Source: an uncultured Desulfosarcina sp. | GTDB taxonomy: Bacteria > Desulfobacterota > Desulfobacteria > Desulfobacterales > Desulfosarcinaceae | DNA length: 24,000 nucleotides | Direction: 5' to 3' | NCBI GenBank assembly: GCA_963668455.2 | Contig: CAXXOY010000009.1 | Span: 191,467 to 215,466 of the forward strand | Shown: one piece after another, positions 8,773-23,076 of the stretch | How positions within the stretch are numbered: position 1 is the stretch's first letter | Layout of the letters: every line of letters begins with the position of its first letter | Translations under genes and position numbers: made by a program | Notes under the pieces: model-generated | Told to the model about the DNA's origin: nothing | Databases searched by the model: none | Seen by the model: the letters and a program-made list of their open reading frames with translations, nothing else

Positions 8773-9690
8773 TCATTCGGCAAAAACTGATTCCACCAGT
8801 CTTTGTGTGGCTGCCAAGGCATCCACAAACGTAATAATCTCGTCAGGGCCGGCAAACGACACTTGCAGCACGAAGGTTTCGTATTCCTTCGCCCACCCTC
8901 TGTCATGGTGCAAATGGTCGAGCATGGTGGTGAAGCGCTCGACCGGGTCCCGAGGCGCCCCTCCTCCTCCCCGGCCAGCGTCCTTTTCCGCTATTTTCCG
9001 CACTAAGGCCACGAATTCCGGCGCGCTTTCGATACGGCTTTCAAGAGCCGCCAAATCGTAAAGGTGACGTATGATGGCGGGATCGTCATTTTCCGCCCCT
9101 CGCTTGCGCGTGCAAACGCGCCAAGCCAAGGCGTTCAATTTATCGGCGGCTGTTTCCATTGGGTCAACGCAGGGGAAACCCAGAACCTCGGGCGGATTCT
9201 TTTCAAACCGTGCAATCAAAGACCGAATAGGCCGGGTTATTGGTTGCAGCACCGGCGCAAGGAAAGACATTTCGATACGGATATAAGGTCTCAGGCCCGG
9301 GCCTGTTTGGAAATGACTGTGATAGGCCAAATCGGCGGAGAAAAAGCGGCTTTCATTACCCTTTTTAACGGCGATCAAATTTAAATCAGCGGAGGTCAGG
9401 ACCGATAAAACTTGCTCTCGGTAACCGCTACGCTGTTTTCGCTGCTGAGCGTTACTCGCGTCGGCGGGCATGGAGACCTTGAAGTCGATATCTTCGGAAA
9501 AACGTTTGATAAGCCCCCATCCCTTCGATAACGACGTGCCCCCCGAAAAAGCAGGTACCGCGCCGACACCGTCGAGGGACGAAATCACACGTATGGCTTG
9601 AACGACATGCCAATCCTTCTCGACCAGACGTTCGTCGCTCAAAAACGCGCCAGCGACCCGCTCAATAATTTTCCGCTCAAGCACGTTCAA
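8773..9690 (-). CDS. abiEii: AbiEii/AbiGii-family nucleotidyltransferase toxin (type IV TA / abortive infection)
   Basis: Family motifs EKDWHV and FSGGTSLSKGWGLIKRFSEDIDF are present. It overlaps the upstream antitoxin-like gene by 14 nt. Confidence 0.9.
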   Translation of the reverse strand: MNVLERKIIERVAGAFLSDERLVEKDWHVVQAIRVISSLDGVGAVPAFSGGTSLSKGWGLIKRFSEDIDFKVSMPADASNAQQRKQRSGYREQVLSVLTSADLNLIAVKKGNESRFFSADLAYHSHFQTGPGLRPYIRIEMSFLAPVLQPITRPIRSLIARFEKNPPEVLGFPCVDPMETAADKLNALAWRVCTRKRGAENDDPAIIRHLYDLAALESRIESAPEFVALVRKIAEKDAGRGGGGAPRDPVERFTTMLDHLHHDRGWAKEYETFVLQVSFAGPDEIITFVDALAATQRLVESVFAE

Positions 9691-10084
9691 AACTCATAAA
9701 AACCCCTTTGTAACCGATCTTGCGGCGCACCCTTTTCCGGGTGGCGATCACTCGGCCTGCCGGGACTTGGGTTGTTTTACCGGCATTATAGGCTTGTTCA
9801 AAACGCGTTGGGGCGCTTTCGACCCCCAACCGGTTAAGCGCCTCGGCCGTCAAAGAATAGAGCCCCTTGACCGGCGTCGGTGTACCGTCGAAGGGCGATG
9901 GCACGGCACGCGTGTAAAGCCCCTGGCCTATTTTCATAAGCATCCCCTTCTTCACAAGCCCCCGAAGGGCACGACCAACCTGGTCATAGCCGCCAAGGTC
10001 TTTAAAGTCGGCACGCAGAAAGACGTCGCCGCGCTTACGGTCGATACGTTTCATCAAACGTGTTTCCAAATTTTCGGTTCTCAT
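9677..10084 (-). CDS. abiEi: AbiEi-like wHTH antitoxin/transcriptional regulator
   Basis: I prefer the ATG at 10084 (MRTENLETRL), which has GAGGTG 4 nt upstream, over the track start at 10135. RGDVFLRADFKDLGGYDQVGRALRGLVKKGMLMKIGQGLYTR matches the AbiEi N-terminal wHTH pattern. It is paired with abiEii. Confidence 0.75.
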   Translation of the reverse strand: MRTENLETRLMKRIDRKRGDVFLRADFKDLGGYDQVGRALRGLVKKGMLMKIGQGLYTRAVPSPFDGTPTPVKGLYSLTAEALNRLGVESAPTRFEQAYNAGKTTQVPAGRVIATRKRVRRKIGYKGVFMSFERA

Positions 10085-10106
10085 ATTGCACCTCGCATTT
10101 AATGTC

Positions 10107-10135
10107 AACTTACGACATTTTTGAGATGATTTCAA
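10107..10135 (-). promoter_or_regulatory. Candidate sigma70 promoter for abiEi-abiEii (TTGAAA-17 nt-TAAGTT on the minus strand)
   Basis: The -35 complement lies at 10130-10135 and the -10 complement at 10107-10112, giving a leader of about 15-20 nt to the ATG at 10084. TAGTTAA direct repeats (10136-10142, 10148-10154) abut the -35. Confidence 0.35.
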
Positions 10136-10814: not shown

Positions 10815-11519
10815 ATGAACAAGGCAATCATCATCGGTAGATTGGGTAAAGAAGCATTTTTTTTAAATGGTGGTGAGCAAACCGCCTGCCGATTTCAATT
10901 GGCGGTAAAGGAGACATGGAAAAACAAAAACAACGAACCTCAGGAGCGAACCGAGTGGGTCAATGTGGCTGCCTGTGGGTCCATCGCCGAACGGATGAAA
11001 GGCGTTGCTAAAGGCACGCTTGTGTTTGTTCAGGGATCGGCCAGCACAGGCAGCTACACGAAAGATGATGAAACCCGCTACTATTTCGAAATCATGGCCA
11101 GCCAGCTGGGCATTTTGCCTGCAACCGAAGAAAAATCGTTTAAAGATCTGGATCAAAATGAAATCGCCTTGGTCGGTCGTCTTGGGCAGGATCCAATGAC
11201 CCCCAAGGAGGGAATTACTCACTTCTCTTTGGCATGTAACGACTATTTCAACGGCCAGGAAACCACCCAGTGGATCAGCGTTGCCACATTCAATGGGTTG
11301 TCTGTCAATGCTGCCAGAATATTGAGCAAAGGCCGTCTGGTTTTCGTCGAAGGCAAAGTGCGAACCAGAAAATATGACAAGGATGGGCAGACCCGTCATA
11401 CCACGGGTGTTATCGCACACAAGTGGCGGGCACTGGATTCGAAGCCTAAAAAACAAGAATCAAGCGAGTATCACGAATCTGCATTCTACGGCTATGCGGA
11501 TGACGATATTCCGTTTTAA
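10815..11519 (+). CDS. ssb: Single-stranded DNA-binding protein with two tandem OB folds and one C-terminal acidic tip
   Basis: OB1 begins MNKAIIIGRLGKEA...WVNVAACG and OB2 begins EIALVGRLGQDP...WISVATFNG...GRLVFVEGKVRTRKY. The C-terminal tail ends ...YADDDIPF, the canonical SSB tip. Confidence 0.9.
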   Translation: MNKAIIIGRLGKEAFFLNGGEQTACRFQLAVKETWKNKNNEPQERTEWVNVAACGSIAERMKGVAKGTLVFVQGSASTGSYTKDDETRYYFEIMASQLGILPATEEKSFKDLDQNEIALVGRLGQDPMTPKEGITHFSLACNDYFNGQETTQWISVATFNGLSVNAARILSKGRLVFVEGKVRTRKYDKDGQTRHTTGVIAHKWRALDSKPKKQESSEYHESAFYGYADDDIPF

Positions 11520-11526
11520 CTCAACG

Positions 11527-11556
11527 CCCCTGGATCTTAAGCCCTTGGATCCGGGG
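11527..11556 (+). other. GC-rich hairpin between ssb and the primase-like gene
   Basis: CCCC(T)GGATC at 11527-11536 pairs with GATCCGGGG at 11548-11556 (9 bp, one bulge). No T-run follows. The GATCCGGGG arm resembles the P1 hairpin of the DUF932 leader. Confidence 0.35.
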
Positions 11557-11567
11557 GCTCACAACCC

Positions 11568-12359
11568 ATGAGGTTATCGATGGAACGAATCTTTCAAAAA
11601 CTCGAACGATATTTTGGCAGATGGAAAATCGGTGTGCTGAATCCGGACAGAGGACTATGGTCGCTTTCGCCTTCCGTAAATAAGTTGGGATATCTGAGGG
11701 CAATGAACGCCAGCGGCTATCACATCTTCATGAAGCCGGAGGACGAAAGCCGCTTCCTGCTTTTGGACGATATTCCGGAAAACAAATTGGCATACCAAAA
11801 AGAGTTGAAACGATTTAAGCCCGGGCGTCTGGTGGTGGAAACCAGCCCCGGAAATTATCAGATATGGATCAGGGCTGACCGAAGCATCGGCAATCCGGAA
11901 AAGAGATACTGGATCAACTTTTTCCGGGCAGATCCCGCCTGCGATCCGAACTTACGTTGGGGCCGCTGTCCGGGGTTTCGCAATTGCAAACCGAAATACG
12001 GCAAGAATGGTCGCTATCCCCTTTCCCGCCTTGTTTGGGTGGATTGGAAAAAAGCTGCCCAGATCCCGAACGTGGCAATGCCGGCAAGGCCAACAGACCG
12101 GCAGACTATCAAGGTAAAATCGATAAGCCATCACATATCGCCCCTCCCTATCCTGCGTTCCGACTATGAGCGCGGGGATGATTCGGCCACCGACTTTGCT
12201 TATGCGCTCGCACTACTTCGGCGGGGAACCGACCCGGAAGTCGTTGCCGATAGGCTGCTGCAAGAAAGAAGTAATTGGATCCACCATAAAGGCCAGCGGC
12301 GCCAGGCCGATTACCTTCAGCGCACGATCAAGCGCGCCGTTGAAATCATAAATCAATAA
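11568..12359 (+). CDS. RepB'-type (RSF1010-like) plasmid primase-like protein
   Basis: FLLLDDI ... LVVETSPGNYQIWIRA resembles the catalytic-core motifs I recall for the RepB primase family. The true start may be the second ATG at 11580, which has GAGG 6 nt upstream. This is a recall-based call. Confidence 0.5.
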   Translation: MRLSMERIFQKLERYFGRWKIGVLNPDRGLWSLSPSVNKLGYLRAMNASGYHIFMKPEDESRFLLLDDIPENKLAYQKELKRFKPGRLVVETSPGNYQIWIRADRSIGNPEKRYWINFFRADPACDPNLRWGRCPGFRNCKPKYGKNGRYPLSRLVWVDWKKAAQIPNVAMPARPTDRQTIKVKSISHHISPLPILRSDYERGDDSATDFAYALALLRRGTDPEVVADRLLQERSNWIHHKGQRRQADYLQRTIKRAVEIINQ

Positions 12360-12383
12360 AAGATCGTTTGATTCTTAAACCCA

Positions 12384-12471
12384 ACCCCAGATCCGGGGTA
12401 CCGCAATGGTTCCCAGACAGGGTTGTGTTCTCCCTATGGTTAGAACCATTGCGGCTTTATTCATAGGGAGG
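12384..12471 (+). promoter_or_regulatory. Structured 5' leader, copy A (upstream of DUF932): P1 hairpin, 12-bp P2 stem, apical anti-SD segment, SD
   Basis: P1 is ACCCC/GGGGT at 12384-12399. P2 pairs 12401-12412 with 12443-12454 as perfect CCGCAATGGTTC/GAACCATTGCGG. CTCCCTATG (12430-12438) is the exact reverse complement of CATAGGGAG (12462-12470), which covers the SD. Confidence 0.6.
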
Positions 12472-12477
12472 CAACCA

Positions 12478-13278
12478 ATGAAATCACAATTAATCCCCCT
12501 TACCAATGATCAAATCGTCGAATTGGCTCCTGCTACGGGAGCGATAAACCCACACGAAGCGGTTTCGGATCGGTATAGCTTTGTACCAACCATCGAGGCC
12601 GTCGATTTATTGAGATCGGTCGGATGGCAACCCGTGCATGTAAAGCAATCCGGAACAAGAAAAGATGATCGCAACGGTTATCAAAAACACATCATTCGAT
12701 TCATGCAGGGAGCGTTTTCAACCGAACAGGAACGCGTCGATCTGGTAATGACCAATTCCCATGATCGTGGCTGTGCGTTCCAGCTTTACGCTTCCATCTG
12801 GCGTAAAATTTGTGGAAATGGGTTAATGGTTTCCTCGAAACTGTTTAATTTTTCACATAGACATGTAGGTTTTGACTTAAAAGCCTTCTTGAATTCCGCC
12901 TACCAAATTGCCGAAGGCGCCGGAGAGATTGCCGAACAAGTCAATGATTTAAAGGCAATAGAACTATCTCCAAACGAAAAAGGCGTGTTCGCCATGGCTG
13001 CACATAAATTGGTTTATGACGATATCAATATGGCACCGATTTTGCCATCACAGTTATTAAACGAACGGCGCTATGACGATCGAGGCAATGATCTTTGGAC
13101 AACATACAATGTTGTCCAGGAGAACATAATAAAAGGAGGCATATTTGGAAGCAAGCGAAATGAAAAAGGCCATATTCGTCGGGTCAAAACCCGACCCGTA
13201 AAATCCATTGATCGGGATGTCAAACTCAACAAATCACTGTGGGTATTGACCGAAGAGATGGCCAAACTAAAAGCCTGA
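12478..13278 (+). CDS. DUF932-family protein (common in plasmid/ICE leading regions)
   Basis: The start is ATG 12478 (MKSQLIPL), with GGGAGG 6 nt upstream. The track start at 12406 would translate the structured leader. TNSHDRGCAFQLYASIWRKICGNGLMV matches the DUF932 core pattern (NSHDGS...R.vC.NG). Confidence 0.8.
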   Translation: MKSQLIPLTNDQIVELAPATGAINPHEAVSDRYSFVPTIEAVDLLRSVGWQPVHVKQSGTRKDDRNGYQKHIIRFMQGAFSTEQERVDLVMTNSHDRGCAFQLYASIWRKICGNGLMVSSKLFNFSHRHVGFDLKAFLNSAYQIAEGAGEIAEQVNDLKAIELSPNEKGVFAMAAHKLVYDDINMAPILPSQLLNERRYDDRGNDLWTTYNVVQENIIKGGIFGSKRNEKGHIRRVKTRPVKSIDRDVKLNKSLWVLTEEMAKLKA

Positions 13279-13337
13279 TTAAATAAACAGGCAATGCTGT
13301 ACGGTTCTTCAAAATATGCGTTAACTCAAATATTGAA

Positions 13338-13426
13338 TCCCCCAAATCGGGGAACCGTAAAGGTTTCCCGATGGGGATATCCTCCCTTATTCGTGGGAAC
13401 CTTTGCGGCTGACAACAGGGAGGATA
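13338..13426 (+). promoter_or_regulatory. Structured 5' leader, copy B (upstream of radC), with the same architecture as copy A
   Basis: P1 is CCCC/GGGG at 13340-13352. P2 pairs 13355-13368 with 13395-13408 (14 bp including 2 G-T). TATCCTCCCT (13378-13387) is the exact reverse complement of AGGGAGGATA (13417-13426), which covers the SD. Confidence 0.6.
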
Positions 13427-13428
13427 AA

Positions 13429-13968
13429 ATGAGCACAAAAGAGTATCGTTTCTATTCATATAAGCTGCATATGGTCAAGGAACAAGAAATCAAGTTCTTG
13501 AGTGACCAGGAAATCCACAACAGCTTCGCGGGTTCCGAAGTAATCAGAAAAGTTATCCGCCAGACTGGCCAGACAGATCGTGAAAACTTCGTAGTTGTTA
13601 TGCTGAATACAAAGCTCAAACCCATCGGTGCAAACCTGGTGTCTACCGGAAGCCTGACCCGTTCTATCGTTCAACCCCGTGAAATCATAAAAGCGGCATT
13701 GAATATGCCATGCAAAGCCTTGATCCTTGGCCACAATCATCCGTCAGGAGACCCCTCGCCATCCATGGAAGATAGGTTGATAACCTTCATGATAATGGCG
13801 TCCGCGCAACTTTTCGAAGTGGAGATTCTGGATCACATCATCGTGGATATGGATTCCGATAAATACTTATCCTTTGCGGATGAAAACATCATTAAAATTA
13901 CGAAACGTAACGTACGCTCACTGTTGGAAAAAATCTCAAATATACAAATGAATATGTGCCAGGTTTGA
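13429..13968 (+). CDS. radC: RadC-like JAB/MPN-domain protein
   Basis: The start is ATG 13429 (MSTKEYRF), with AGGGAGGA upstream. The JAMM-type motif GHNHPSGDPSPS is present, followed by ED..T and EILDHIIV. Confidence 0.9.
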   Translation: MSTKEYRFYSYKLHMVKEQEIKFLSDQEIHNSFAGSEVIRKVIRQTGQTDRENFVVVMLNTKLKPIGANLVSTGSLTRSIVQPREIIKAALNMPCKALILGHNHPSGDPSPSMEDRLITFMIMASAQLFEVEILDHIIVDMDSDKYLSFADENIIKITKRNVRSLLEKISNIQMNMCQV

Positions 13969-14018
13969 TTGGAAACGCTCTGGGCACACCATGAAGCAGA
14001 GTTGACCAATCAGACTGT

Positions 14019-14060
14019 CCGACCGTCTGTTTTTGATTTTAAAAAAAAACAGACGGTCGG
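14019..14060. repeat. Perfect 16-bp inverted repeat (CCGACCGTCTGTTTTT / AAAAACAGACGGTCGG) downstream of radC, either terminator-like or a protein-binding hairpin
   Basis: Arms at 14019-14034 and 14045-14060 are separated by a 10-nt A/T spacer. The T and A runs lie inside the hairpin rather than after it, so it is not a textbook intrinsic terminator. A smaller CAGAC/GTCTG hairpin (14011-14029) followed by TTTTTGATTTT could terminate + strand transcription. Confidence 0.6.
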
Positions 14061-14425
14061 CAAGCTTGCTTATTCCATGACTGCGCAAGAATTTATTACC
14101 GTCTGGAATAAATAGATAATCTTCAATCCTCACTGCGACCGTTCCTGTTTAAAAATGCCCTGAAAAAAACAAATTGGCGACTGACGACCATTTTTTTCGG
14201 CACACGGAAAAGGCAAAAAGGGAAAGATCGCAATTACCAAAATCCCATTCTTTGTAACCGCTGATCATCACATCAGCGTATGTATAAAGCGATTATCCTT
14301 ACCCTGTACCCGTTTCCGGGGCGTCGCCTACGGCGATGCGGGGTAAAATCGCATTAACCGAGATTCTTATTAATCCGGTGATCTCACCGTTTGATAGATC
14401 GCTATAAGATTGCAAATGAAGGGAG

Positions 14426-16824: not shown

Positions 16825-19800
16825 ATGTTCAAGAACCTTTTATCGAACAACCGGCAAACTGCGTCTTTATGGGCACTGGTGTTACTTTTTGCCTTCTTCG
16901 TGTTTTTTAACGGAACGACGGTAGTTTTTGCCGACGACAGCTTATGCGCGGTTGTCAAAATTGAAATCCAACAGGAACTTACCCTTGAGCGTCAGGCGTT
17001 CGACGCCCATATGACGATCAACAACGGTCTTTCCCACATCTCGCTTGAAGATGTAAGCATAAACGTTTGGTTTACAGATGAGGCCGAGAATCCGGTATTG
17101 GCCACATCCGATCCCAACGAAACCTCCGCCAGTTTTTTCATCAAAGTCGATTCCATGACCAATATTTCCAGTGTGGATGGGTCAGGCACCGTAGCACCAT
17201 CCACTTCAGCCGATATCCATTGGATGATAATTCCCTCCCCTGGGTCTTCCAATGGATTGGAAAGTGGCACGTTGTATTATGTTGGTGCTACGCTGTCGTA
17301 TACTCTCGGCGGGGAAGCCAATATCACAGAGGTCACTCCCGACTATATTTATGTCAAACCAATGCCTACTATCGCGCTGGACTATTTTCTTCCTTCCGAG
17401 GTCTATGGCGATGACGCTTTCACTACAGAAATCGAAGCGCCGGTACCTTTTTCCCTGGGCGTTAGGGTTTCAAACAACGGAGACGGAACTGCACGTCAAC
17501 TTAAAATCGAGTCCGCCCAGCCCAAGATTGTAGAAAACGAACAGGGACTGCTTATCGGGTTTGCATTAGAGGGCAGCCAGGTAAACGGGCAACCGGCAAC
17601 CGATAGTCTGATGGTTGATTTCGGCGATATAGCGCCTGGGACCTCGGGAACTGCCCGTTGGACCATGAGCTGTACCCTCTCGGGCAAATTTACTGAATTT
17701 GAAGCGGATTTTTCCCATTCGGACGAACTGGGCGGCGAGGTGACTTCGCTTATAAATGCAGCTCAGACCCACTTTTTAGTACATGATGTTCTGGTTGATC
17801 TGGTCGGGCGGGACCAAATTCGCGACTTTCTTGCCAAGGATGGCGACATTCTGCGTGTTTATGAATCGGATAACGTGGATACCGTGGCAACCGATCTGTC
17901 CTCCCAGACAGGAATATACTACCAGGGTACCCAAAACGGCCGGCCGGTTTATAAATTCTCTATGCCCGTCAATGTTGGATTCGTATATACCCGCCTTCCC
18001 GACCCTTACAATGGCAGCAAGGTTATTTATTCAGCTGTTCGAAACGATGGAAAAGTCATTAAAACCGATAATATCTGGCTTTCCAAATCTCGGGACGAAC
18101 AGAGCTGGGATTATTACATCGACCTGTTCGATGCAAACACCACCGGTGAATACACCGTGGTGTTCGATGATCCGGAAGCCACTCCCCAGGCACCGGTGCT
18201 TCAATACATAGCCAATGTCATTGCCATTGAAGGCGAACGCATTTCTTTTGTCTCCATGGCCAGCGATCCGGATGGCACCATTCCATCCTTGTCCGCCGCC
18301 GTGCTGCCGGCTGGGGCTACATTCACCGATCAAGGCGACGGCACAGGTGTTTTTGACTGGAAAACGGTGGTCGGCCAGGCCGGCTCCTACGGGATTACTT
18401 TTAAAGCCTCCGACAGTGCGTTGTATAATACCCAACGGGTAATTCTGACCATACGTTCCATTGACGATACAGATGGCGACGGTATGAGCGACGCCTGGGA
18501 GATGGCGAATTTCGGTACTCTGGACCGCGATGGCACCGGCGACTTCGACGGCGATGGAATCAGCGATCTGGATGAATACCTGGCCGGTTCCGATCCCACG
18601 GACGAAGACCATGCTCCCACCGTGCCGGCAATTATCTCCCCCTTGCCGGGTGAATCAGTATCTGCTTTAATCCCGGCGCTGGAAATCGAAAACAGTACCG
18701 ATGCAGACGATGATGAAATTTCTTATCAATTTGAAATCTATGCAGATGACCAATACAGCACTTTGGTCGCTGCCAATGATAATGTCCCCCAAACCATGGA
18801 CACCACTTCCTGGACGCTTACAGAGGAGCTAACCGAAAACCAGAACTATTTCTGGCGGGTACGGGCCACGGACGGCTACAGCTTCAGCCAATGGGCCTAT
18901 GGAAGCTTCTTTGCCGCAGGCGAGAACGACTCGCCACAAGGAGTGGCTATTAGTTTCCCACAGGACGGTTTTGACGTCGATTCCCTGAATCCCTTGTTGG
19001 AGGTAACCGGCATCTCCGATCCCGACGAGGAAGAGCTTACCTGTTCCTTTGAAGTATATGAAGACATGGCCATGACCGCCCCTGTTGCAGAAGTGCATGA
19101 TCTGATTGTCCAGGCTGACGGCGTGGTTGATTGGGCAGTGAATGTAGAGTTATCGGACAACACAACCTATTTCTGGCGTGCAGTAGTGACCGATGACCAA
19201 GGTGCGGTTGAAGAAACATCTTTAGCCTCTTTTACGGTCAATACGAGTAACCACGCCCCAAACGTTCCGATCATCAATTTTCCTGCCTATGGGGAAGATG
19301 TATCGTCAACATCGGTGGAACTATCGGTGGTCAATGCACAGGACACCGATGGCGATATCCTTGACTATTATTTCGAAATCGATACGGACCCCGGTTTTAA
19401 CAGCTCTGAGAAACATGTTTTCGATTTCATAGAAGAAGGCGTGGATATAACATCCTGTCCGGTCTCAAACTTGAGCGACAACACCACCTACTATTGGCGT
19501 GCCATGGCCACGGACAACCTTTCCTCAAGTAGATGGGTAAACGGTAGTTTTTTCGTCAACACCGCCAATAATGAACCGAATGCCCCCGCCTTGAAGAACC
19601 CTGGCGAGGAAGCCTGGGTAGGCGTACTAAAGCCGAACCTGATCCTTGCTGATGGCGTTGATGTGGACAACGATTCCTTGAGCTATCGATTTGAGGTGTA
19701 CTCTGATTCTAACCTGGAAAATCTGGTCGCATGGGCTAAATCCGAATCCTGCGATTGGACGGTGGTCACCGAGCTGACCGATCAAACCCGTTATTACTGG

Positions 19801-22800
19801 AGAGCCCGCGCAATCGATGAGCATGGCGACGAAGGCGATTGGAGCTGCACGGCATCCTTCTTTGTAAAAGAGGAGGAACAGCCGCAACCTGAAGTGATCA
19901 CAGTCAATGTTTCCACCGACAAGGGTGATGGGCTCGAAAACATTAAGGTTTACGTATTTACCGAGGCCGATAGATACACAGGCGTCAGTGCCACAACGGA
20001 AACGGACGGAAGTGCGATTTTCGATGTAGATGCATTGGAACCGGGCGTGTATAAGTTCAGAGCCGACTACCTGCGCAGCAAATTCTGGTCGGACGCCGTA
20101 TCCATCCCGGAAACCGCAACCGTTCCTATACAGATAGACGTGGAAACCGTGACCGTCAATGTCGGTACGGCGTTCGGAACGGTGTCCGGAGCAAGGGTTT
20201 ATCTCTTCTCGGAATCGGGTAAATATCTTGGCGTTTATCTGGAAACCGACGCCAATGGCCAGGTATCCTTTGATCTTCCCGCTGGGGAAACCTACCTCTT
20301 CAGGGTCGATATTCTACGCAACCAATATTGGAGTGCCGTAACCACCATACAGTCTGGTGAAAGCACTGCTGTTGACGTCGATGCAGGCGGCGGAAAGCTC
20401 CAAGTTGTCGTGAAAAAGGATGAAACGGCGACTATCGAAGGGACAAAAGTCTATCTTTTTAACGACAGCGAGAAATACCTTGGTGTTTGTGCCACCACGG
20501 ACGATGCCGGCACCGTGGAATTTAATGTCACCGAAGCCGATTATAAAATAAGGGTCGATTATCTGGGATACAAATATTGGAGCGAGACGCTTCATATAAC
20601 GACCGATACAGTTGAAACCATGGTTATTCCACACCAAGAAGTCAGGTTGACACTGCAAGGTCGCTATCAGGAAATCGACACACCAATATCCGGCATCAAA
20701 AGCTACCTTTTCACCTCGGACAGTTCCTATGTGAAACAGTACCTGGAAACCGACGATAATGGCCAGGCCACTTTCTACCTCCCCGAAAAGGAATACAAAA
20801 TCCGCTCGAATGCTTTCAAAAGCCAGTATTGGTCGGAGCCCTTCATCTGGGAAGACCCGGTAATAACCATTCCCATGGCCGAGGCACGGATCACGGTGGA
20901 CGCTGCCGGCGTTCCCAAGGAGAATGTGCCTGTCTACGTGTTTAACGCGGATGGAAACTACCTGGGTATCAAGGACGTCACCGACGAAAACGGTCAGGCG
21001 ATCTTCCGGATTCCTGAAGGCGAATATGCATTTCGCGCGGACTATCTGAAAAACAAATTCTGGGCGGAAAGCTGCACAGCGGTCGCCGATATGGTTAACG
21101 ACTTTAGCGTATCGCTTGGCGGAGGCACCTTTCAACTGACTGTCATGGACGATGACGATGCGCCGATTTCAGGTGCTAAGTGCTACGTTTATAATGAAAA
21201 CGACGCCTATGTCGGCCTAAAGGCAGCCGCCGACGATAATGGCGTGGCAAGTTTCGATCTTGCCAATGGTACTTACCGTTTCCGCGTGGACTATTTAGGG
21301 CATCGTTTTTGGAGCGACTCCGTCACGGTAACCGGCAATGCTGAAGAAACCATGGTTATCGCAAAATCCATGGTTTGGGTCCGTGTTCTCATGGCGGACG
21401 GCGTCGCCACCGGAGCCAAAGTTTATCTTTTCTCCGAATCCGATAAATACCTCGGGCAATATGCCGTAACCGACGATAATGGCGAAGTTGAATTCGACCT
21501 GCCCACCGGCGTTGTCTTTAAATTCCGGGCCAACATTCTTGGCAGCCAGTACTGGAGCGAAGACATCACCGCTTCGGACGATTTATCCACCGTGACAATC
21601 GATGCCGGCGGCGGCCGGCTGCAAGCAACGGTTCAAACCGACGATGGAACGCCTTTATCCGGCCTATCGGCATATCTCTTCAGCGAAGAAGGAAAATACC
21701 TTGGCCTTTCCCAAACCACGGATGCATCCGGTGATATAGCCTTCACCGTTCCCGAGGGCTCATACCGCATTCGCGTCAACTATCTGGGATACACGTTCTG
21801 GGAAGAAGATATAGAGGTTATTGACGACACCACGGTTTCGTTCATCATCGCAATTCAGCCGACAACGATCACCGTTGCCGGCGGCTACCAGGGTGTGGAT
21901 ACGGCACTTGAAGACATTCGTGTTTATCTTTTCAGTCCCACCGGGAAATATTTGGGTCTTTCCGGTTATACCGACGACCAAGGCACGGTAGTCTTCGATC
22001 TCCCCAAGCAAGACTATATGGTTCGAGTAGATTTGGCGGGAACACAATTCTGGTCCGATCCGTTTACCTGGCAGGATACCACCGTGAGAATTCCCATGAC
22101 CGAAGCCGTGGTAACGGTGACCGGAGCCGGCCTTCCCACCGCGAGTTGTAATGTCTACCTTTTTTCTGCCGATAATACTTACCTGAAAAGCAAAATAACT
22201 ACCGACGATCAAGGGTCGGTCCGTTTTCATTTGCCTGCGCAAACATATAGATTCCGAGCGGATTATCAGGCCAAACAGTACTGGAGCGGAGATGTTGTTC
22301 TGGAAGCGGATGCTGAAAACCCGGTACTGATCAGCGTCGGCGGTGGAAATGTCACACTTGGCGTTAAAAAGGACGATGGTACAGCCATTGCCGGCATCAA
22401 CTGTTATGCGTTTGCCGATAGCGGCTCTTACCTTGGCCTTAAAGGCGCCACTGGCGATGATGGGCAGGTTGCCTTCAGCCTGGCTGACGGTGATGTGAAA
22501 TTCCGCGCGGATTATTTTGGCTACAAATACTGGAGCGACATCCTCTCTGTTCCCGGCAACCAGAACCAAACCATTACCATCGAGCATTCAGACATCTCTG
22601 TTACTTTTCAGGGGCGTTATCAGGGAACAATTCAGCCCTTGGAAGGGCGTAAGGTGTATTTGTTTACGCCTTCCGGCCGCTACCAGGGGCAAAACCGGGT
22701 TACCGATGCCGAAGGGCATGTCAGCTTCAATTTGCCAGACCAATTGTATCAGGTTCGCTGTGATGAATTGCGCCGGAAATATTGGTCGGAGTCTTTTCAA

Positions 22801-23076
22801 TCGCGGGATACCACGGTCACCGTTCCCATGGGACAGGCTGTGATCGATGTGACCTTTTCCGGTGAACCGGCCGAGAATGCCAGGGTTTATCTGTTCAGCG
22901 ATGAGAATCGTTACCTGGGCCGATACGAGACCACCGACAGCGATGGGACCGTTCGATTCATGCTCCCGGTTGGTTCGTATCTTTTCCGCACAAACCTGGA
23001 TGGCAAACAAAGCTGGACAGATATCACGGAGGTAACCGCTGACCTGGAAACTGTCGCCGGCGTGGCGATGGAATAA
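16825..23076 (+). CDS. Giant secreted multi-domain repeat protein (2083 aa)
   Basis: GGAGGG precedes the ATG. The signal peptide is MFKNLLSNNRQTASLWALVLLFAFFVFFNGTTVVFA/DD. A roughly 410-aa N-terminal region carries a CARDB-like segment (VRVSNNGDGTARQLKIE). An Ig/cadherin-like domain spans about aa 455-545, and Asp-rich TSP3-like Ca-binding repeats span aa 546-596. Four beta-sandwich repeats of about 105 aa follow, then 13 repeats of 77-84 aa resembling carboxypeptidase-regulatory or Cna-B-like domains. I recognised no C-terminal sorting signal. Confidence 0.9.
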   Translation: MFKNLLSNNRQTASLWALVLLFAFFVFFNGTTVVFADDSLCAVVKIEIQQELTLERQAFDAHMTINNGLSHISLEDVSINVWFTDEAENPVLATSDPNETSASFFIKVDSMTNISSVDGSGTVAPSTSADIHWMIIPSPGSSNGLESGTLYYVGATLSYTLGGEANITEVTPDYIYVKPMPTIALDYFLPSEVYGDDAFTTEIEAPVPFSLGVRVSNNGDGTARQLKIESAQPKIVENEQGLLIGFALEGSQVNGQPATDSLMVDFGDIAPGTSGTARWTMSCTLSGKFTEFEADFSHSDELGGEVTSLINAAQTHFLVHDVLVDLVGRDQIRDFLAKDGDILRVYESDNVDTVATDLSSQTGIYYQGTQNGRPVYKFSMPVNVGFVYTRLPDPYNGSKVIYSAVRNDGKVIKTDNIWLSKSRDEQSWDYYIDLFDANTTGEYTVVFDDPEATPQAPVLQYIANVIAIEGERISFVSMASDPDGTIPSLSAAVLPAGATFTDQGDGTGVFDWKTVVGQAGSYGITFKASDSALYNTQRVILTIRSIDDTDGDGMSDAWEMANFGTLDRDGTGDFDGDGISDLDEYLAGSDPTDEDHAPTVPAIISPLPGESVSALIPALEIENSTDADDDEISYQFEIYADDQYSTLVAANDNVPQTMDTTSWTLTEELTENQNYFWRVRATDGYSFSQWAYGSFFAAGENDSPQGVAISFPQDGFDVDSLNPLLEVTGISDPDEEELTCSFEVYEDMAMTAPVAEVHDLIVQADGVVDWAVNVELSDNTTYFWRAVVTDDQGAVEETSLASFTVNTSNHAPNVPIINFPAYGEDVSSTSVELSVVNAQDTDGDILDYYFEIDTDPGFNSSEKHVFDFIEEGVDITSCPVSNLSDNTTYYWRAMATDNLSSSRWVNGSFFVNTANNEPNAPALKNPGEEAWVGVLKPNLILADGVDVDNDSLSYRFEVYSDSNLENLVAWAKSESCDWTVVTELTDQTRYYWRARAIDEHGDEGDWSCTASFFVKEEEQPQPEVITVNVSTDKGDGLENIKVYVFTEADRYTGVSATTETDGSAIFDVDALEPGVYKFRADYLRSKFWSDAVSIPETATVPIQIDVETVTVNVGTAFGTVSGARVYLFSESGKYLGVYLETDANGQVSFDLPAGETYLFRVDILRNQYWSAVTTIQSGESTAVDVDAGGGKLQVVVKKDETATIEGTKVYLFNDSEKYLGVCATTDDAGTVEFNVTEADYKIRVDYLGYKYWSETLHITTDTVETMVIPHQEVRLTLQGRYQEIDTPISGIKSYLFTSDSSYVKQYLETDDNGQATFYLPEKEYKIRSNAFKSQYWSEPFIWEDPVITIPMAEARITVDAAGVPKENVPVYVFNADGNYLGIKDVTDENGQAIFRIPEGEYAFRADYLKNKFWAESCTAVADMVNDFSVSLGGGTFQLTVMDDDDAPISGAKCYVYNENDAYVGLKAAADDNGVASFDLANGTYRFRVDYLGHRFWSDSVTVTGNAEETMVIAKSMVWVRVLMADGVATGAKVYLFSESDKYLGQYAVTDDNGEVEFDLPTGVVFKFRANILGSQYWSEDITASDDLSTVTIDAGGGRLQATVQTDDGTPLSGLSAYLFSEEGKYLGLSQTTDASGDIAFTVPEGSYRIRVNYLGYTFWEEDIEVIDDTTVSFIIAIQPTTITVAGGYQGVDTALEDIRVYLFSPTGKYLGLSGYTDDQGTVVFDLPKQDYMVRVDLAGTQFWSDPFTWQDTTVRIPMTEAVVTVTGAGLPTASCNVYLFSADNTYLKSKITTDDQGSVRFHLPAQTYRFRADYQAKQYWSGDVVLEADAENPVLISVGGGNVTLGVKKDDGTAIAGINCYAFADSGSYLGLKGATGDDGQVAFSLADGDVKFRADYFGYKYWSDILSVPGNQNQTITIEHSDISVTFQGRYQGTIQPLEGRKVYLFTPSGRYQGQNRVTDAEGHVSFNLPDQLYQVRCDELRRKYWSESFQSRDTTVTVPMGQAVIDVTFSGEPAENARVYLFSDENRYLGRYETTDSDGTVRFMLPVGSYLFRTNLDGKQSWTDITEVTADLETVAGVAME
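18613..19872 (+). repeat. Four tandem coding repeats of about 105 aa inside the giant gene
   Basis: A recurrent pattern is seen: P-x-x-P ... acidic cluster (NSTDADDDEISYQFEIY / ISDPDEEELTCSFEVY / AQDTDGDILDYYFEID / GVDVDNDSLSYRFEVY) ... NTTY(F/Y)WRA ... W..GSFF. The (F/Y)WR anchors fall at aa 676, 783, 890 and 991. Confidence 0.8.
19888..23073 (+). repeat. Thirteen tandem coding repeats of 77-84 aa with higher-order three-unit modules
   Basis: The anchor motif (K/R)VY(L/V)F...YLG...TD..G.V.F.LP.G.Y.FR.DY....YWS recurs at aa 1041, 1124, 1208, 1292, 1369, 1452, 1532, 1615, 1699, 1776, 1859, 1943 and 2020. Unit subtypes (GGG-type, RYQ-type, PM.EA-type) recur in the same order three times. Confidence 0.8.

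Follow-up and report, generated by a model that had tools for sequence, protein, structure and literature searches.

The 24-kb window analyzed here, by which we mean the whole 24,000-nucleotide (nt) stretch of contig CAXXOY010000009.1 (positions 191,467 to 215,466 of the forward strand) from an uncultured Desulfosarcina sp., contains a row of four plus-strand genes identified with Pfam as encoding an SSB (10815-11519), a RepB-type primase (11568-12359), a DUF932 protein (12478-13278, starting with the ATG at 12478-12480), and RadC (13429-13968, starting with the ATG at 13429-13431). Pfam also places an Integrase_1 gene 3' of radC and genes for TraG_N, a type IV coupling protein, ParA, ParB, and HU 5' of this row, and from its gene content the neighborhood resembles the establishment end of an integrative conjugative element, with the row from ssb through the primase and DUF932 genes to radC forming what we infer to be its "leading region." Two structured leaders, also read on the plus strand, lie directly upstream of DUF932 (copy A) and of radC (copy B). 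Comparison with related leaders shows that their best-conserved feature is a predicted hairpin hiding the ribosome-binding site, preceded by a conserved GC hairpin and repeated before several cistrons, and that the leaders are members of a previously uncatalogued structured-RNA family.

A first-pass annotation of the window had described each leader as a small GC hairpin (P1) followed by a long stem with an apical hairpin, the motif GCGGCT, a linker of 7 to 8 nt, and a Shine-Dalgarno (SD) sequence. Direct reading of positions 12200 to 13600 confirms all of the hairpins, stems, and coordinates claimed for both copies. In copy A, P1 consists of CCCC (12385-12388) and GGGG (12395-12398) separated by 6 nt, the long stem joins CCGCAATGGTTC (12401-12412) to GAACCATTGCGG (12443-12454) in a perfect 12-bp helix that an independent scan also reported as inverted repeat I9, the apical hairpin is formed by AGGG (12419-12422) and CCCT (12432-12435), and GCGGCT (12451-12456) is followed by the SD sequence AGGGAGG (12465-12471). 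The same parts recur in copy B: CCCC (13340-13343) and GGGG (13349-13352) separated by 5 nt, a long stem of CCGTAAAGGTTTCC (13355-13368) with GGGAACCTTTGCGG (13395-13408) that has 14 pairs, two of them G-T, an apical hairpin of GGGA (13374-13377) with TCCC (13383-13386), and GCGGCT (13405-13410) before AGGGAGG (13417-13423). The linker length did not hold for copy B, in which it is 6 nt. As had been noted, the seventh pair of the long stem is T:A in copy A (12407:12448) and A:T in copy B (13361:13402). The two copies share 76% column identity when aligned, both fold better as RNA than their dinucleotide shuffles (z = -3.4 for copy A and -5.1 for copy B), and pattern searches together with a profile search found no further copies in the window. 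Ten inverted repeats of at least 11 nt occur in the 24 kb, so that a 12-bp inverted repeat is by itself not rare and the case for the leaders rests on conservation in homologs, namely 17 further leaders of the same type.

The minimum free energy (MFE) RNA fold of the window copies is not the structure described earlier but a pair of hairpins, H1 and H2. H1, the 5' hairpin, is GC-rich and joins the first C-run to the second G-run around a GGGG..ACC-loop-GGT..CCC hairpin, and H2 pairs an anti-SD segment with the SD sequence and the spacer up to the start codon. Copy A H1 (12382-12425, -17.7 kcal/mol alone) has an outer helix of CAACCC (12382-12387) with GGGTTG (12420-12425), an inner helix of GGGG.ACC (12395-12402) with GGTTCCC (12408-12414), and the apical loop GCAAT (12403-12407). 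Its H2 (12430-12470, -20.8 kcal/mol alone) pairs the anti-SD CTCCCTATGG (12430-12439) with TCATAGGGAG (12461-12470), which the inverted-repeat scan recovered as I4 and which covers most of the SD sequence at 12465-12471. The tip of this H2 carries a small hairpin (12441-12459; TAGA.CC with GG.TTTA) that contains the 3' arm of the long stem (12443-12454) and whose loop ATTGC (12448-12452) is complementary to the H1 loop. Copy B H1 (13337-13378, -27.8 kcal/mol alone) has an outer helix of ATCCCC (13337-13342) with GGGGAT (13373-13378) and an inner helix of ATCGGGGAACC (13346-13356) with GGTTTCCCGAT (13362-13372) closed by the loop GTAAA (13357-13361); its H2 (13379-13425, -18.8 kcal/mol alone) pairs ATCCTCCCT (13379-13387) with AGGGAGGAT (13417-13425), covers the entire SD sequence, and presents CC-TTTGC-GG (13400-13408) in its loop, TTTGC being complementary to the GTAAA of H1. 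The long stem (12401-12454 in copy A, 13355-13408 in copy B) excludes both H1 and H2; forced, it gives -38.9 against an MFE of -39.4 kcal/mol in copy A and -44.0 against -46.0 kcal/mol in copy B. The architecture first proposed, with P1, long stem, and apical hairpin standing and the SD sequence free, is just one of two mutually exclusive folds.

Homologs of these leaders are numerous and stand before establishment-type or "leading-region"-type genes of conjugative elements in Desulfobacterota. An alignment of DUF932 proteins led to 63 genome loci and 48 metagenome loci, nearly all from Desulfobacterota (Desulfosarcina, Desulfobulbaceae, Desulfocapsaceae, Desulfopila, Desulforhopalus, and others), and comparison of their upstream regions bears out the first-pass proposal of a duplicated structured leader, with 19 leaders of one type and about 127 of a second. 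An nhmmer profile search of these 111 loci plus the window found 148 instances (129 unique), up to 4 per locus, every one of which lies on the gene strand and terminates in an SD sequence and a start codon. The genes that follow encode DUF932 (80 instances), a 114-amino-acid (aa) unknown protein (27), and RadC (24), with SSB, DUF6927, DUF3846, DUF2786/DUF7168, and a YqaJ-like gene also represented. Type I, the kind found in the window, occurs in Desulfosarcina and its allies (70 to 90% DUF932 identity) and precedes DUF932, radC, and one unknown open reading frame (ORF); its 17 members beyond the window come from other genomes and metagenomes. Type II belongs to the Desulfobulbales (about 60% DUF932 identity) and runs in the order TCCC(C), a GGGGCA-loop-TGCCCC hairpin, GGGAG, GTCTTGYCCC, an A/U-rich loop, GGAGRCAAGAC, and ATG, and a covariance model of its H1 and H2 built from six seeds gave 127 matches in 100 sources, 122 of them on the gene strand. 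Copy A had no blastn match in 72,556 plasmids and the exact type II pattern occurred at a single locus in viral contigs, from which the family seems confined to chromosomal elements of Desulfobacterota.

A third and simpler arrangement is found at DUF932 loci of 68 to 72% identity, where a variable GC-rich hairpin is followed by (A)AACCCCAA(C) and an SD sequence, with no anti-SD helix, before almost every gene of the locus (examples are L113:1444-1556, L113:1847-1959, L113:2391-2503, L114:2391-2503, and L115:2391-2503, and their neighbors). These loci carry ssb, Antirestrict, DUF4942, DUF3560, and ParB genes. In the window, the 48-nt gap between ssb and the primase gene holds a strong 12-bp GC hairpin at 11526-11558 (GCCCCTGGATCT...GGATCCGGGGGC; -25.5 kcal/mol for the stretch 11510-11575), followed by CACAACCC and the ATG at 11568, with no evident SD sequence. 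This hairpin has GATCCGGGG in common with copy A and is similar to the simpler "hairpin + AACCCC" leaders of L113 to L115.

In type II leaders H1 and H2 are visible by eye, and the anti-SD segment tracks every variant of the spacer between the SD sequence and the start codon (CAAGAC, CAGGT, CAAAAC, CAATCA, AGATAC, and AAACAGA are all matched upstream). We measured this with an alignment-free partner-swap test in which each 5' half was paired with every 3' half and own partners were compared with foreign ones. Among type II leaders, the own partners were superior for both H1 (z = -7.6) and H2 (z = -10.9; 0 of 2,000 permutations), with control pairings giving no signal, and among type I leaders the same held for the pairing of anti-SD with SD (z = -4.2; 1 of 5,000). 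When type II leaders were aligned to the model, 94.2% of cells were paired compared with at most 62% for slid partners, and 19 of the 21 pairs showed compensatory change, amounting to 152 cells versus 34 ± 5 in shuffles (0 of 500). All 10 pairs of H2 had changed on both sides, with 96.4% paired. RNAalifold applied to a plain MAFFT alignment of 68 type II leaders recovered 6 H2 pairs, few because indels misalign H1, and we used the swap test and the covariance-model alignment instead. In the alignment of the 19 type I leaders, H1 is 83% paired, with compensatory change at three pairs. The two arms of H2 are separated by as little as about 9 nt in some leaders and by as much as about 35 nt in others, as expected of a hairpin rather than of a duplex-DNA operator. 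A pairing of the second G-run with the anti-SD segment, also considered, showed no covariation beyond slid controls and is ambiguous, and the ensemble probability of an unpaired SD sequence relative to a shuffled-upstream control proved uninformative and was not used, as C-rich shuffles still pair the SD sequence and a bulged A dominates.

The elements of the structure proposed earlier fared unequally: compensation is found in the long stem and is lacking in P1. The CCCC:GGGG hairpin is pairable in 88% of cells but shows zero compensatory change, a level that shuffled and slid controls match, and the first C-run covaries with the second G-run instead. In some members, such as L009:2356, the linker is too short for P1 to form, and in others (L012:795) the first C-run and second G-run belong to one continuous 12-bp helix. 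The long stem has conserved complementarity with some compensatory change, confined to type I and in competition with H1 and H2. In the 19 type I leaders it is 91.9% paired, compared with at most 57% for slid partners, and 4 pairs (11 cells) are compensatory; position 4 appears as C-G, U.G, or U-A, and position 7, for which a compensatory swap between the two window copies had been claimed, is U-A in 4 leaders, A-U in 11, U.G in 1, and U.U in 3. The swap is genuine, although not strict.

These figures bear on the reading in which P1, the long stem, and the apical hairpin are the sole functional fold, serving as an aptamer or protein platform with the SD sequence constitutively free. The pairing of the long stem and its four pairs changed on both sides speak for such a fold, and it is the optimum for copy A under DNA parameters and the RNA optimum in 3 of 16 type I leaders. 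It is nonetheless highly improbable, given that some 127 type II relatives keep H1 and H2 and have no long stem, that P1 does not covary, and that these 19 leaders contain compensatory changes in each of H1, H2, and the tip hairpin, none of which is compatible with the long stem. In the radC leaders L001, L002, L003, and L064 the tip hairpin has a G-C pair at alignment position 85, where the long stem would have an A.C mismatch in L002, L003, and L064. Nor is there a multistem junction or an invariant unpaired block of the kind that would suggest a ligand pocket: a search of the leaders for a ligand-binding core (a multihelix junction or invariant unpaired nucleotides) found none, and the invariant columns lie almost entirely in stems or in the SD sequence.

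Since the long stem excludes H1 and H2 and yet all three are conserved in the same type I sequences, the relationship between them deserves separate consideration. Over 16 type I leaders, forcing the long stem costs 0.5 (copy A), 2.0 (copy B), and in general 0 to 12 kcal/mol (mostly 0 to 5), with the two-hairpin fold optimal in most. Two of the covarying long-stem positions sit in the 5-nt apical loop of H1 (GCAAU or GUAAA), and their partners sit in the 5-nt loop of the small H2-tip hairpin, (A/G)(A/G)CC-WUURC-GG(Y)(Y), which is itself 92% paired in the 19 leaders with 2 of 4 pairs compensatory (7 cells; 0 of 500 shuffles). The complementarity fits a loop-loop kissing contact between H1 and H2 as well as it fits a long stem, the two being equally compatible with the sequences. 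A conserved G-run 5' of the tip hairpin pairs only in the long-stem model, and this keeps that model alive. A pseudoknot combining the long stem with H2 is implausible, judging from the geometry, as 5 nt would have to span a 12-bp helix. Kissing-loop complexes such as ColE1 RNA I/RNA II offer a precedent in that the loops here are likewise complementary (GCAAU with AUUGC and GUAAA with UUUGC) and a contact between them could nucleate strand exchange into a long duplex; the leaders differ in carrying both hairpins in one molecule, with loops of only 5 nt and a putative contact suggested by sequence covariation.

We considered at which level these elements act. Promoter and terminator scans found no promoter-like or terminator-like sites at either copy (promoter ranges 12360-12480 and 13300-13430), so that a promoter reading was rejected. 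An intrinsic terminator or attenuator was likewise rejected, the terminator scan being empty at both copies and no GC stem being followed immediately by a U-run; the long stem is followed by 3 or 4 T in DUF932-type leaders and by GCGGCTGACAA in radC-type leaders. Just 3' of radC, at 14008-14071, is a 16-bp perfect hairpin with T-run and A-run flanks (CCGACCGTCTGTTTTT...AAAAACAGACGGTCGG; -28.9 kcal/mol) that looks like a bidirectional terminator closing the ssb-radC transcription unit. Given this strong terminator-like hairpin and the absence of promoter or terminator sites at the copies, both leaders are most simply intercistronic parts of one mRNA, lying between cistrons of a single plus-strand transcription unit that comprises ssb and the genes for the RepB-type primase, DUF932, and RadC. 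For both types, mRNA is indicated by the way the leaders abut exactly on the SD sequence and start codon, by their covariation with the spacer, by a loop of variable length, and by the preference of the model matches for one strand. The sense strand of type I leaders, moreover, folds 4.8 kcal/mol better than its complement (14 of 16 leaders; p = 0.0013), because it has many G.U pairs.

The possibility that the leaders instead work as single-stranded DNA (ssDNA), forming hairpins in the incoming transferred strand that serve as Frpo-like promoters or as priming sites for the adjacent RepB-type primase, has to be weighed against these results. The setting invites it, since ssb and the genes for the RepB-type primase, DUF932, and RadC resemble a conjugative leading region, and in the leading regions of F-like plasmids the Frpo/ssp ssDNA promoters are long hairpins that rebuild -35 and -10 boxes on the transferred strand (Masai & Arai 1997, cited in PMC13478746; PMC9849209). 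The likeness extends to structured GC-rich elements 5' of ssb and antidefense genes in the first-transferred region, and type II leaders fold equally well on both strands, while the long stem is the minimum-energy structure of copy A under DNA parameters. Known ssDNA promoters, however, are long hairpins with -35 and -10 boxes (PMC13478746), whereas the leaders are only 60 to 95 nt long, overlap the ribosome-binding site, and contain no promoter-like hexamer pairs in their stems or region by scan and inspection, the stems consisting of CCGCAATGGTTC and GGGG/CCCC runs. All copies end exactly at an SD sequence and start codon with a helix that covaries with the SD spacer, for which a DNA element would have no reason, the G.U pairs of type I would become C.A mismatches on the template strand, at a cost reflected in the sense-strand advantage above, and all but 5 weak covariance-model matches are on the gene strand. 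We regard an ssDNA element as very unlikely.

A coding reading was also rejected. The gene calls that extend DUF932 and radC upstream (from 12406 and 13294), which the first-pass annotation had considered artifacts, are indeed so. Among related leaders, L065, L066, and L090 have an in-frame stop codon one codon 5' of the ATG, L003 has a frameshift in the extension, and three radC leaders have it broken by stops; DUF932 homologs of 266 to 275 aa mostly begin at the short start, with the extension present in three gene calls only. Annotation should use shorter ORFs in place of the calls at 12406 and 13294. The leaders also match no Rfam 15 family. A covariance search of the whole window at the gathering score returned nothing relevant, including radC (RF01754) and STAXI (RF01728), the two motifs that had been named as candidates and whose models are both in this library (PMC2864571); neither matched at an E value of ≤10 over 12300-13500 or of ≤1 over the window, nor in searches of 20 plus 13 related loci. 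The matches obtained in the window and these 33 loci (Flavo-1, Leu_leader, group II intron, and tRNA) were unrelated or due to chance.

From the structures we propose that the leaders probably act in cis by RNA-level control of translation through occlusion of the SD sequence. H2 would occlude the ribosome-binding site by default and hold down translation of each cistron, and with a stability near -20 kcal/mol it would need some mechanism of opening. Type I has an additional segment in its H2 loop, complementary in inverted order to the upper part of H1, and this segment may either kiss the H1 loop, locking the closed form, or invade H1 to give a long stem of 12 to 15 bp, drawing the anti-SD segment into the apical hairpin and freeing the SD sequence. 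This built-in competitor would be the obvious candidate for opening H2. As the two folds are nearly isoenergetic, type I may be a two-state translational switch, a possibility that we rate at somewhat less than even. The balance could be tipped by a protein, by RNase cleavage between the anti-SD and SD segments, or by ribosome or helicase action, and the unusually constant GUCUUGCCCC/GGAGGCAAGAC pair would be a candidate recognition site for a trans-acting factor.

Several observations weigh against this proposal and should be set beside it. Repression of translation is inferred from structure, and the trigger may be any of the candidates just given. Pair counts for type II are inflated by the fitting of its alignment to the model structure; it is for this reason that the alignment-free swap test, which mitigates the problem, matters. 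Type I rests on 19 related sequences, and its covariation (1 of 500 shuffles) is of a level that unconstrained related sequences reach in 5 to 25% of trials, a caveat of the method itself. Three type I leaders have the U.U mismatch at the supposedly compensatory seventh position, and in some long-stem folds the first C-run re-pairs with the SD sequence, so the "open" state may be not fully open. Type II shows no asymmetry of folding energy between sense and antisense, and the acting strand is therefore not proven for that type. Finally, the type II covariance model misses the window copies at an E value of ≤0.01, and types I and II are linked by their common architecture and one intermediate (L066:259-366).

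Two further readings accept that the elements work in mRNA and place their function elsewhere. The leaders could be processing or stability elements between cistrons, either cleavage sites for RNase III or RNase E or stem-loops that protect, by which a polycistronic mRNA is cut into stable units. The SD pairing would then be secondary, or it would be relieved once cleavage parts the anti-SD from the SD segment, as with the RNase III sites of T7 early mRNA or with adhE. Such a role would suit elements that lie between cistrons of one operon, several of which have their own copy, and in its favor are the 20 to 28 near-continuous pairs that the type I long stem and apical extension form in some members (e.g., L090) and the A/U-rich, single-stranded H2 loops of type II; that the 68 to 72% identity loci have only a variable GC hairpin before each SD sequence suggests a general role of intercistronic hairpins. 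It leaves unexplained, however, why the anti-SD segment tracks all changes of the SD spacer up to the start codon, and type II has no RNase III-sized long duplex across the anti-SD and SD segments. We consider processing unlikely as the principal function; it is compatible with SD occlusion rather than exclusive of it, and cleavage could be the trigger.

The other reading is a translational coupling relay, in which the base of H1 is opened by a ribosome that is finishing the upstream cistron, so that initiation at the occluded start becomes possible, directly or by reinitiation. Type II leaders lie close to the preceding cistron, with a median of 9 nt (mode, 8 nt) from its stop codon to the first C-run, which would put the base of H1 at the leading edge of the terminating ribosome, and the two hairpins, as drawn, bring stop and start codons spatially close. 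The spacing is exemplified by L009:2896, L016:2901, and L026:2910 and is typical of structures acting on a ribosome at a stop codon. About 40% of type II leaders nonetheless have the stop more than 10 nt away, the distance is 25 to 63 nt for the window copies and for every other type I leader that has an ORF upstream except L066:364 (6 nt), and the takeover pairing that coupling calls for, second G-run with anti-SD, is no better than slid controls and weaker than H2. Coupling has little probability as an account of the family, and for the window copies, with stop codons 25 and 60 nt before the first C-run and hence out of reach, it was rejected.

Returning to SD occlusion, elements that sequester the SD sequence are familiar from riboswitch expression platforms, RNA thermometers (ROSE and fourU), the fold-back inhibition of IS10 and IS50, and hok mRNA. 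As in these, an upstream anti-SD segment pairs with the SD and start region and an alternative pairing can release it, and by this analogy the leaders most probably work like such translational control elements. They differ from riboswitches in having no recognizable aptamer domain, from thermometers in having stems whose GC content and stability (-19 to -21 kcal/mol) are much too high, from the IS10/IS50 type in that no internal promoter makes the fold-back conditional, and from all of these in occurring several times per operon, one before each cistron. The general mechanism is already known; the leader family itself is new.

Among catalogued RNAs, two motifs invite comparison by their gene context. 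The radC motif (RF01754) is a candidate cis-regulatory RNA in the presumed 5' untranslated regions of radC, integrase, and other DNA-related genes of mobile elements (PMC2864571, Weinberg et al. 2010), and copy B likewise lies directly 5' of a radC gene. It was described from Proteobacteria, in contrast to the present family, which is from Desulfobacterota and is defined by SD occlusion. STAXI (RF01728) is a pseudoknot repeated in tandem two to three times in Enterobacteriales near ssb, antirestriction, topoisomerase, and integrase genes, and whether it acts as RNA or ssDNA is debated (PMC2864571), a question that arises for the present leaders too. These differ from STAXI in having one hairpin element per cistron, ending at the start codon.

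Several features of the window and the related loci are recorded for completeness. The SSB of the window is a 234-aa protein with two matched OB-fold stretches (a tandem SSB), and those of related loci are about 107 to 132 aa. Between the HU gene and ssb, on the minus strand (8773-10135), are an AbiEii toxin gene and a DUF6088 gene, a type IV toxin-antitoxin or abortive-infection pair inserted opposite to the ssb row. Just beyond the element, after a transglutaminase-like gene, an ORF of 2,083 aa with many internal repeats (16825-23076) is presumably chromosomal cargo or flank. At L117:1215-1448, 3' of DUF932, a radC-type leader is cut off after its first ~25 nt (AATCTCCAATTCGGGGTGATGG), no radC gene is present, and a near-identical copy of the 14008-14071 terminator hairpin follows; the fragment looks like what remained after a deletion. 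Group II intron domain D1-D4 matches (130 to 131 bits) lie a few kilobases 3' of DUF932 at L001:6113-6287 and L043:4167-4331. A DUF932 gene of 62% identity is found on a 4.4-kb contig (L005, JAIWHJ010000216.1) in a Promethearchaeota archaeon metagenome-assembled genome bin, preceded by a sigma-70-like TTGACA...TAAAAT and no family leader, and this is probably a misbinned bacterial contig.

The leaders most likely control translation of genes that the conjugative element needs on arrival. A stronger version, in which they are a timing device, with a bistable RNA before each establishment gene that is kissing-locked when closed and long-stemmed when open, so that the genes are silent in the donor or integrated state and translated in a burst only after entry into a new host, is improbable as it stands. 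It would have the flip made by an element- or host-encoded factor or by cleavage severing the anti-SD from the SD segment, and in type II the same core opened by the ribosome finishing the previous cistron; if true, it would add a new post-transcriptional layer to "zygotic induction," distinct from ssDNA promoters. The structured-RNA catalogue gains a well-populated candidate supported by covariation, with about 150 instances so far in mobile elements of sulfate reducers, and the genes it accompanies are the same as those flanking the unexplained radC and STAXI motifs, which makes a common logic of all three testable. Expression of the genes needed first (ssb, the antirestriction-like DUF932, radC, and others) has so far been explained mainly by ssDNA promoters in enterobacterial plasmids. 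The leader family suggests that in an abundant and environmentally important phylum there may be a different, post-transcriptional layer, in which a leader hiding the ribosome-binding site stands before each cistron.

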